IMG/VR virus record: IMGVR_UViG_2740892229_000017
Direction: 5' to 3' (one strand)
Length of the DNA stretch: 4,479 bases
From: a virus
Taxonomy: Duplodnaviria; Heunggongvirae; Uroviricota; Caudoviricetes
Position 1 is the first letter of the stretch; each line of letters opens with the position of its first letter. The translations under genes and the position numbers were made by a program. Under the pieces are notes generated by a model, which ran no database searches, was not told the origin of the DNA, and saw only the letters and a list, made by a program, of their open reading frames with translations. This document shows, in pieces, positions 3,830 through 4,235 of the stretch.

Positions 3830-3876
3830 CCATCTTTGCTTTCCTAACAAACATCACCATGGCATGCCAACAAAAA
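3830..3876 (-). promoter_or_regulatory. Conserved ~47-bp upstream element, copy 2 (94 nt upstream of the nleB2 ATG, directly abutting the terminator)
   Basis: Minus-strand sequence tttttgttggcatgccatggtgatgtttgttaggaaagcaaagatgg aligns without gaps to 900-946. It contains a 10-bp perfect palindrome, tggcatgcca. Confidence 0.3.
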
Positions 3877-3897
3877 CCGGAGCCGGACTCCGGTTTT
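3872..3897 (-). terminator. Rho-independent terminator hairpin downstream of the small ORF; symmetric, so potentially bidirectional
   Basis: Plus strand reads aaaaa-CCGGAG-ccgga-CTCCGG-tttt: a perfect 6-bp GC-rich stem (10 bp counting A:T pairs) with a 5-nt loop, flanked by an A-run and a T-run. On the minus strand the T-run (tttttgttgg) follows the stem, and the hairpin starts about 14 nt after the stop codon of the 3912-4235 ORF. Confidence 0.6.
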
Positions 3898-3911
3898 GTG
3901 AAGCTGTCGGG

Positions 3912-4235
3912 TTACTTCATCCCGCCAATATTTTCCCACGTCCCGTCAGCACGCAGAATTTGCAGCGGTCTTACCACGCACTGTATCTGCTTTTTATCTG
4001 CATCCAGTATCACCACCTGCGTGATTACCCTGTCCTGCTCCGGAATAATGCCATTCTCATCTGACTCCAGAATGTCTGCCGGTCCCAGACGCAGTTGTGC
4101 TGTAAGCAACTGCACGTGTTCACGGCCATCATGCTTTCCGCAACCACACAGACGCTGCATAAGTTTTTTTAGTATATTCATGTCATTCTCCTGTTCTGCC
4201 TGTATCACTGCCCACTTCATCCAGCCCCTTAACAT
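3912..4235 (-). CDS. Hypothetical small prophage-backbone protein (107 aa as given; 89 aa from the internal ATG at 4181, which has a strong SD)
   Basis: ORF ending at TAA 3914-3912, translating MLRGWMKWAVIQAEQENDMNILKKLMQRLCGCGKHDGREHVQLL...GTWENIGGMK. The internal Met19 (ATG 4181-4179) is preceded by AGGAG at a 6-nt spacing. Coding status is supported by the substitution pattern against the second copy beyond the gap (6 synonymous, 5 nonsynonymous, no indels) and by the terminator immediately downstream. The 5' limit is uncertain because the contig ends at 4236, one base past the ATG. I do not recognise the family. Confidence 0.45.
   Translation of the reverse strand: MLRGWMKWAVIQAEQENDMNILKKLMQRLCGCGKHDGREHVQLLTAQLRLGPADILESDENGIIPEQDRVITQVVILDADKKQIQCVVRPLQILRADGTWENIGGMK

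Follow-up and report, generated by a model that had tools for sequence, protein, structure and literature searches.

What is the small open reading frame (ORF) that stands between the tail fiber gene of a lambdoid prophage and a cassette of type III effector genes? The question is raised by a 4,479-nucleotide (nt) stretch of the IMG/VR virus record IMGVR_UViG_2740892229_000017 (hereafter the window, numbered from its first letter), in which a minus-strand ORF encoding 89 amino acids (aa) precedes nleB2. A first-pass annotation made from the letters alone could not assign the protein to a known phage family. Our searches show that the ORF is not an orphan but belongs to an already catalogued and annotated prophage gene family. 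The protein scored 123.3 bits against the Pfam family PF06820 (Phage_fiber_C, here PfC), for which the curated gathering threshold is 25 bits; the alignment (E = 5e-36) placed all 64 profile positions on residues 28-89. It also matched PHROG 576 ('tail fiber protein', a profile of 89 positions) from end to end (E = 2.3e-59). In complete genomes, PGAP calls the product of these 270 nt a 'phage tail fiber C-terminal domain-containing protein'. The Pfam description, the C-terminus of a long tail fiber protein, does not fit the present case, where the domain is a separate 89-aa protein made up of a 27-residue N-terminal extension (MNILKKLMQRLCGCGKHDGREHVQLLTAQ) and a 62-residue PfC domain. The protein corresponds to ORF68 of the Shiga toxin (Stx) 2 phage Sp5 (PMC5155283). 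The view that it is not Tfa-like holds at the sequence level, a tail-fiber-assembly match being absent at E ≤ 1 in Pfam, NCBIfam and PHROGs. NCBIfam and PADLOC gave zero matches of any kind for the small protein, and a PDB sequence search with the single protein and with a profile returned only chance coiled-coil matches.

The longest reading of the ORF runs from 4235 to 3912 on the minus strand and yields 107 aa, with an internal ATG at 4181-4179 and a TAA stop at 3914-3912. The internal start preceded by a Shine-Dalgarno (SD) sequence, AGGAG-N6-ATG, can be read directly in the sequence, as had been pointed out, and the alignment of PHROG 576 (positions 1-89 on residues 19-107 of the 107-aa reading) begins exactly at this inner ATG. 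The additional N-terminal part of the 107-aa form is read from the final 18 codons of the fiber gene in the other (+1) frame, and in 7 of 53 related loci it is interrupted by an in-frame stop. In a divergent homolog (locus L085) the start is preceded by AGGAGG-N6-ATG geometry with a TAA two codons before the ATG, and the two N-termini align (MTIFKK in L085, MNILKK here). Because of the stops in the extension and the start geometry of L085, we take the 89-aa form as the conserved product and hence as the gene; the 107-aa form, which had been carried along as an alternative, is not conserved, and its extension is probably not translated as part of the small protein. A lipoprotein reading of the N-terminus (LCGC lipobox at residues 11-14) was rejected, as the hydrophobic core is too short and is broken by Q and R.

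Across 33 distinct alleles from IMG/VR prophages, the ratio of nonsynonymous to synonymous polymorphism (pN/pS) was 0.17 in frame versus 2.8 and 1.1 in the two wrong frames; within the gene, values of 0.08-0.10 for the PfC part contrast with 0.42 for the N-terminal extension. The ORF is thus under purifying selection. Full-length copies were intact in 55 of 56 cases and the AGGAG sequence was kept in 54 of 56 loci, and together with the in-frame pN/pS this bears out the earlier proposal of a genuine small gene with an SD of its own. Folding of the RNA around the start and the SD revealed no significant structure (z = +0.56), leaving sequestration of the SD unsupported. The fiber gene and the small ORF meet at TGA-C-ATG, such that the ATG lies one base past the fiber stop. 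One of the 56 IMG/VR loci (junction ...CAGAACAGAGAATGACATG) has a 1-nt deletion within AGGAG that fuses the fiber and the small ORF in frame (...GSDTGRTENDMNILKK...), representing either a natural fusion or a sequencing error.

The small ORF is, on sequence comparison, a stand-alone paralog of the 64-residue C-terminal knob of the fiber encoded directly upstream, and not a piece of the fiber gene. The full fiber gene, of which the window holds only the 3' end, encodes 437 aa (L001, L089) and shows the Pfam domains phage_tail_N, Collagen and Phage_fiber_C, arranged in the order phage_tail_N, coiled coil, Gly-X-Y collagen repeats and, at residues 363-426, a Phage_fiber_C of its own. This is the architecture of EPclA, whose PfC is a trimerization module that can renucleate the collagen helix (Ghosh et al., 2012; PMC3368898). 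The PfC of the small ORF and that of the upstream fiber share ~40% identity across 62 residues. The first-pass annotation had considered that the ORF might turn out to be the C-terminal part of a longer fiber gene; it is not part of a longer gene, yet it is a paralog of the C-terminal domain of the adjacent fiber. The survey of what lies upstream in other prophages, which had also been suggested, showed that a fiber gene ending in PfC precedes the small ORF. Further evidence came from the divergent module L085 (110-974 of the locus, GCA_008387015.1), in which a 79-aa stand-alone PfC (P0129) follows a 212-aa non-collagen fiber protein that also ends in PfC. The two L085 genes overlap by 14 nt, and a DNA match to this module was absent among 5,426 complete E. 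coli genomes. Hairpin and junction motif recur downstream of the L085 homolog, where effector cargo (NleG, SopA-like) is also present. Between the two lineages the stand-alone PfCs are 65% identical and the fiber PfCs 37%, with cross-comparisons at 30-42%; since the stand-alone copies have stayed at 65% where the fiber copies have fallen to 37%, the duplication appears to be old, with both copies retained and the free copy more constrained. The arrangement of a fiber ending in PfC, a stand-alone PfC and a hairpin is kept in long-tailed phages, in short-tailed phages and in the divergent module L085.

With regard to distribution, a tblastn search identified 296 phage records, lambdoid and short-tailed Stx phages, 293 of them at 90-99% identity. 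The segment is multi-copy, with ~6,000-7,500 matching places in ~700 complete genomes and a median of ~12 per carrying genome. A phmmer search over 1.84 billion representatives returned 56 matches. Apart from the 79-aa divergent homolog and one 565-aa protein with four PfC-like repeats, these were the same E. coli proteins in fragmentary or chimeric form, and a profile search that followed found nothing further. A scan of one genome per species added only E. albertii and a 725-bp contig labeled Xanthomonas pisi (L093, NZ_JPLE01000138.1), on which the ORF is found at 92% identity and most likely reflects E. coli contamination of the assembly. The family is otherwise very narrow, being confined to prophages of Escherichia and Citrobacter rodentium. 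In the 565-aa protein (P0146) the four tandem PfC-like repeats (e.g., VVVLDADAKTATGQMGILQVRRADGTWMEIPALKG) are followed by collagen repeats, which indicates that the second half of PfC is a repeat unit outside the Escherichia fiber context as well. A degenerate second copy of the 3' half of the ORF occurs in 13 loci (L014 at 3975-4108 and 12 other IMG/VR loci); these copies cover nt 130-265 or less, are 81-91% identical and usually lie 0.7-1 kb past the intact ORF, with the first cargo gene in between. What separates the two copies in L014 is DNA that matches the sequence past the ORF in short-tailed Stx phages, suggesting that cargo was gained through recombination within the small ORF.

The window itself seems to contain a second copy of the ORF, at 4247-4433, beyond a run of N; the 186 nt that follow this gap repeat 4051-4236 at 94% identity. 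This is an assembly artifact and not a tandem or genomic duplication, as the repeat maps to the same genomic position as the first copy. The 233 nt after the gap are 100% identical to the bioA-side prophage of NZ_CP027355, at the position equivalent to window 4050-4282, and the gap therefore conceals overlapping contig ends that bear two paralogous alleles. In related loci and complete genomes there is one full copy of the ORF per prophage. Over 186 nt the two alleles differ at 11 sites, which all fall in codons 2-37 and comprise six synonymous and five non-synonymous changes; the synonymous-rich divergence claimed for the pair is hence correct in its direction (6 versus 5), but it is not striking, and the alleles compared are paralogous. 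In E. coli 2013C-4991, window 1-3855 differs from the bioA-side prophage by a single mismatch, whereas window 3856-4236 has 22 mismatches to it and is identical to another prophage (L001) of the same genome. The point at which the allele switches between prophages lies in the junction motif just past the hairpin, and the switched segment may be either an assembly chimera or a real recombinant. As a practical hazard, short-read scaffolds across this multi-copy region yield false duplications and chimeric alleles.

All genes in the ORF list of the window are on the minus strand, and from high to low coordinates they run as fiber gene 3' end, small ORF, hairpin, nleB2, nleC, a tail-fiber-assembly remnant and nleH1-1 (Table 1). 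The equivalent 4.2 kb in complete genomes adjoins bioA/ybhB, in the order J - lom - 437-aa fiber - 89-aa gene - nleB2 - nleC - tfa remnant - nleH - nleD, a layout that we take to be the one found in the O157:H7 prophage Sp3/CP-933K. The 89-aa ORF closes the late (tail) module of a lambdoid prophage resembling Sp3/CP-933K, and the synteny in complete genomes confirms its placement as the last phage-type gene ahead of the effector cargo. The contrast in base composition likewise stands, with GC fractions of 0.49-0.52 across the small ORF versus 0.32-0.37 across nleB2 (approximately 0.50 and 0.34). The tfa and YkgJ fragments in the cargo look like scars, as if the prophage that gave rise to the nleH cassette had tfa at the end of its tail module. 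A sub-threshold match to Rfam IS009 (RF02111) at 1064-1240 on the minus strand (76 bits versus a gathering score of 117; E = 1e-16) overlaps the tail-fiber-assembly remnant between nleC and nleH.

Table 1. Features of the 4,479-nt window and the basis on which each was placed.
Feature	Position	Strand	Basis or remark
nleH1-1	876 to window edge	-	Annotation transferred from L089
Tail fiber assembly protein fragment without N-terminus	1045-1200	-	PGAP, matching complete genome
YkgJ-family cysteine-cluster fragment	1478-1591	+	PGAP, matching complete genome
nleC	2721-1702	-	Pfam Peptidase_M85
nleB2	3735-2755	-	Pfam SseK_NleB
Junction motif TTTTTGTTGGCATGCCATGGTGATGTTTGTTA between tail module and cargo	3845-3876	-	Second copy at 915-946, upstream of nleH
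Hairpin AAAACCGGAGU-CCG-GCUCCGGUUUU	3873-3897	-	U-tract to 3869; starts 14 nt past the stop
89-aa gene, stop included	3912-4181	-	Pfam PF06820; PHROG 576; PGAP (same 270 nt in complete genomes); pN/pS 0.17
Upstream extension giving the 107-aa reading (probably not translated)	4182-4235	-	Overlaps the fiber gene in the +1 frame
Fiber gene 3' end, EPclA-type collagen-like side tail fiber (...DVKGLDEVGSDTGRTGE)	4183-4236	-	Stop TGA 4185-4183; cut by the scaffold gap
Shine-Dalgarno AGGAG	4188-4192	-	6-nt spacer AATGAC to the ATG at 4181; within the last codons of the fiber gene
Run of 10 N, scaffold gap	4237-4246	.	Joins contig ends that truly overlap by ~186 nt
Second allele, first 44 codons (MNVLKKLMQRLCGYGKHDDREHGELL...)	4247-4378	-	Same genomic position as window 4050-4181
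Fiber gene 3' end (last 33 codons and stop), post-gap contig	4380-4479	-	ORF list, allele comparison

The hairpin behind the stop of the ORF is strong, and perfect as had been described: an 11-bp stem (3897-3887 paired with 3883-3873, loop CCG) runs into TTTTTGTT, with UUUUUGUU as the U-tract that follows the stem. Its folding energy, flanks included, is -22.3 kcal/mol (z = -3.0), a stability reached by 1 of 200 shuffles. It is kept in ~50 of 54 loci whatever cargo follows, and is also present in L085 and in the short-tailed Stx2 phage VT2phi_272. A consensus terminator scan of the window did not call it, in our view because the first four U of the tract lie inside the stem. In Sp5, the essential tail genes ORF70 and ORF71 follow ORF68 (PMC5155283). 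VT2phi_272 carries the ORF, the hairpin and the first part of the junction motif in the middle of its late region, and a 1,704-nt ORF, close in size to the gene for the phi24B nozzle protein gp57 (579 aa), lies ~550 nt beyond the hairpin. With a nozzle-sized ORF downstream, late transcription must cross the hairpin in this phage. Q-modified RNA polymerase of lambdoid phages ignores intrinsic terminators, and the hairpin probably does not stop late transcription; it is more likely to stabilize the 3' end and to stop unmodified polymerase than to insulate nleB2 during induction. The argument that the hairpin insulates the ORF from nleB2 is accordingly weak, given that the same ORF and hairpin stand mid-operon in VT2phi_272. 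What had been deduced from it, that nleB2 has its own promoter, is still likely on biological grounds, given effector expression in lysogens that are not induced, but it does not follow from the hairpin. No promoter was found by a consensus scan from the hairpin to nleB2; by eye, there is a lone perfect TATAAT at 3793-3788 on the minus strand, without a good -35.

Directly past the hairpin lies a junction motif of ~32 nt, TTTTTGTTG-N-CATG...G-N-TGTTTGTTA, whose recurrence upstream of nleH follows the tfa remnant. The related loci, 502 kb in all, contain 97 copies, of which 78 come directly after the hairpin of the PfC ORF; the divergent L085 and C. rodentium carry the motif too. It may mark the edge of a cassette, or act as a site of recombination or of regulation in effector loci. 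Tobe and colleagues reportedly described exchangeable effector loci in lambdoid prophages in 2006. In such loci the effectors, here nleB2, nleC and nleH, stand directly past the tail fiber genes, and the cargo varies while the flank is conserved; that concept concerns the cargo, whereas the small ORF is the conserved flank on the phage side.

The closest known relatives are Sp5 ORF68 (from the Stx2 phage of O157:H7 Sakai) and phi24B gp59, likewise 89-aa PfC-only proteins encoded directly after a collagen-like fiber gene (ORF67 and gp61, respectively). By position after a PfC-ending fiber, identity and synteny, the small ORF falls in the same ortholog group; the Stx-phage copies are 92-97% identical to it, and VT2phi_272 has the same TGA-C-ATG junction and hairpin. 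The settings differ, in that ORF68 and gp59 lie mid late region in short-tailed phages, behind a fiber with two collagen domains (EPclB), whereas the small ORF, preceded by EPclA, closes the tail module of a long-tailed lambdoid prophage and has effector cargo as its direct neighbor. The PfC of EPclA and that of the small ORF both belong to PF06820, beginning with R-L-G-P-A and having D-G-x-W near the end; the former sits behind a collagen triple helix and has an 11-residue tail, whereas the latter is free-standing behind the 27-residue helix/CxC extension. Trimerization has been demonstrated for the EPclA domain only (PMC3368898) and is predicted for the small ORF. The gene for lambda Tfa, too, is small, late, directly downstream of the side tail fiber gene and translationally linked to it. 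Both stf and tfa are dispensable in laboratory lambda. The small ORF bears no sequence relationship to Tfa, its fiber trimerizes alone, and it is a paralog of the fiber tip and not an unrelated chaperone fold.

Evidence that the protein is made comes from phi24B. The supplement to the proteome of its purified virions lists VITQVVILDADKK and ADGTWENIGGMK (bioRxiv 10.64898/2026.04.10.717836), which are identical to residues 52-64 and 78-89 of the small protein; the authors assigned them there to 'gp59_start / Fusion_6159'. The available part of the supplement includes the normal C-terminal peptide of the fiber, GLDEVGSDTGR, and contains no fiber/small-ORF junction peptide. Mondal et al. (2016; PMC5155283) listed the 89-aa PfC-only polypeptide ORF68 among the non-essential late genes of Sp5.

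As to what the free knob does, we tentatively favor, without going so far as to call it probable, a non-essential, trimeric accessory of the fiber's distal end that is made with the fiber from the late transcript. The protein would be produced in step with the fiber and would trimerize through PfC, its short N-terminal helix and CxC segment replacing the collagen stalk. It could then act as a dispensable assembly helper or as a tip-associated subunit, its gene filling the slot that tfa has beside stf in lambda, while the hairpin would mark and stabilize the 3' end of the tail module and block unmodified, but not Q-modified late, transcription. Several observations weigh against this proposal. 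Recombinant EPclA trimerizes without the small protein (PMC3368898), and ORF68, unlike ORF67, is reported to be unnecessary for Sp5 (PMC5155283), so the protein is not a required chaperone. The fiber-PfC and small-ORF allele combinations are mosaic, with no clear co-variation. The label that the phi24B authors themselves put on the peptides is 'Spike or just gp59?' (bioRxiv 10.64898/2026.04.10.717836). An AlphaFold2 monomer built on a 12-sequence alignment was poor (predicted local distance difference test 55, predicted template modeling score 0.41; a helix at 3-12 followed by six strands), such that neither fold nor interface could be read from it, and a Foldseek comparison of this model with BFVD gave no match at E ≤ 0.001. 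The proposal competes with that of Mondal et al. (2016; PMC5155283), who suggested a reservoir for fiber variation, that is, a spare C-terminal cassette which by recombination swaps the fiber PfC and changes the tip. Such swaps would agree with a ~20-nt patch of near-identity at the RLGPA codons of both PfC copies and with two database hybrids, one joining the small N-terminus to a fiber PfC tail (P0123) and the other collagen to the small PfC (P0063), although the latter starts 3 nt from a contig end and may be an assembly chimera. A spare cassette would need neither SD, ATG nor N-terminal extension, all of which are kept; the protein has been detected by mass spectrometry; the free copy is more conserved than the fiber PfC, the opposite of a diversity store; and a probe for the chimeric fiber-to-small-PfC junction, run against the 5,426 complete E. 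coli genomes, showed only the normal two-piece arrangement among the matches listed. These points weaken the idea of a reservoir, which we regard as rather improbable. Slightly less doubtful, but still unlikely, is a knob that acts off the virion, as a putative receptor-binding decoy or a block to re-adsorption or superinfection, with the trimer released at lysis or made at a low level in lysogens. Dispensability for plaque formation and lysogenization (PMC5155283), high conservation across co-resident prophages, with a dozen or so matching places in a typical carrier, and the fact that it copies a domain suggested to recognize the receptor (bioRxiv 10.64898/2026.04.10.717836) would all suit such a role. 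Its N-terminus, however, reads as having neither signal peptide nor lipobox quality, defense-system models (PADLOC) give no match, and the coupling to a late gene speaks against expression in lysogens.

Two further explanations appear very improbable to us. The fiber might be extended by a +1 frameshift or stop bypass at GAA-UGA-C to carry two tandem PfC knobs, for which one could cite the +1 frame of the ORF relative to the fiber, the SD-like AGGAG ahead of the stop, the weak stop context of UGA-C and the single locus in which the two genes are fused by a deletion. Programmed +1 sites of the prfB type combine a slippery P-site codon that can re-pair, an SD ~3 nt upstream and a weak stop. The present junction is not such a site: in ACA GGA GAA UGA C there is no slippery codon, since tRNA-Glu is unable to shift its pairing from GAA to AAU, and whereas prfB has its SD 3 nt upstream of the P-site codon, here the two overlap. 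The search database of the phi24B authors did include 'Fusion_6159_FS1/FS2', but the junction peptide is missing from the available part of their supplement, and Mondal et al. found no frameshift signal in Sp5 (PMC5155283). The ATG and SD are moreover conserved, and L085 has a different overlap geometry. A decaying, functionless duplicate, kept only by recombinational homogenization among prophages, is equally disfavored. The thousands of places at which the segment occurs, the degenerate 3'-half copies past the first cargo gene and the non-essential nature of the Sp5 homolog (PMC5155283) could be expected of such a remnant; near-universal intactness (55 of 56), the low pN/pS within the domain, an architecture that persists in a divergent module at 65% identity and the detection of peptides speak against it. 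More speculative than the distal accessory, and in our estimate rather unlikely, is a bolder form in which the free-standing PfC trimer docks on the distal knob as a structural cap or an additional binding module, and its conserved DNA, together with the hairpin and the TGTTTGTTA motif, is also a homology arm for effector-cassette swaps among about ten co-resident prophages.

The ORF at this boundary is thus a member of a family already on record, which accompanies the collagen-like fiber of enterohemorrhagic and enteropathogenic E. coli prophages and of Stx phages. These phages keep a free, well-conserved copy of the trimerizing knob of their own fiber, and its peptides appear in a virion preparation. 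If the cap and homology-arm proposal is true, the fiber tip would be a two-component device common to long-tailed effector prophages and short-tailed Stx phages. Should the small protein sit on the fiber tip, it would be relevant to the host range of the phages by which Shiga toxin and type III effectors are spread.

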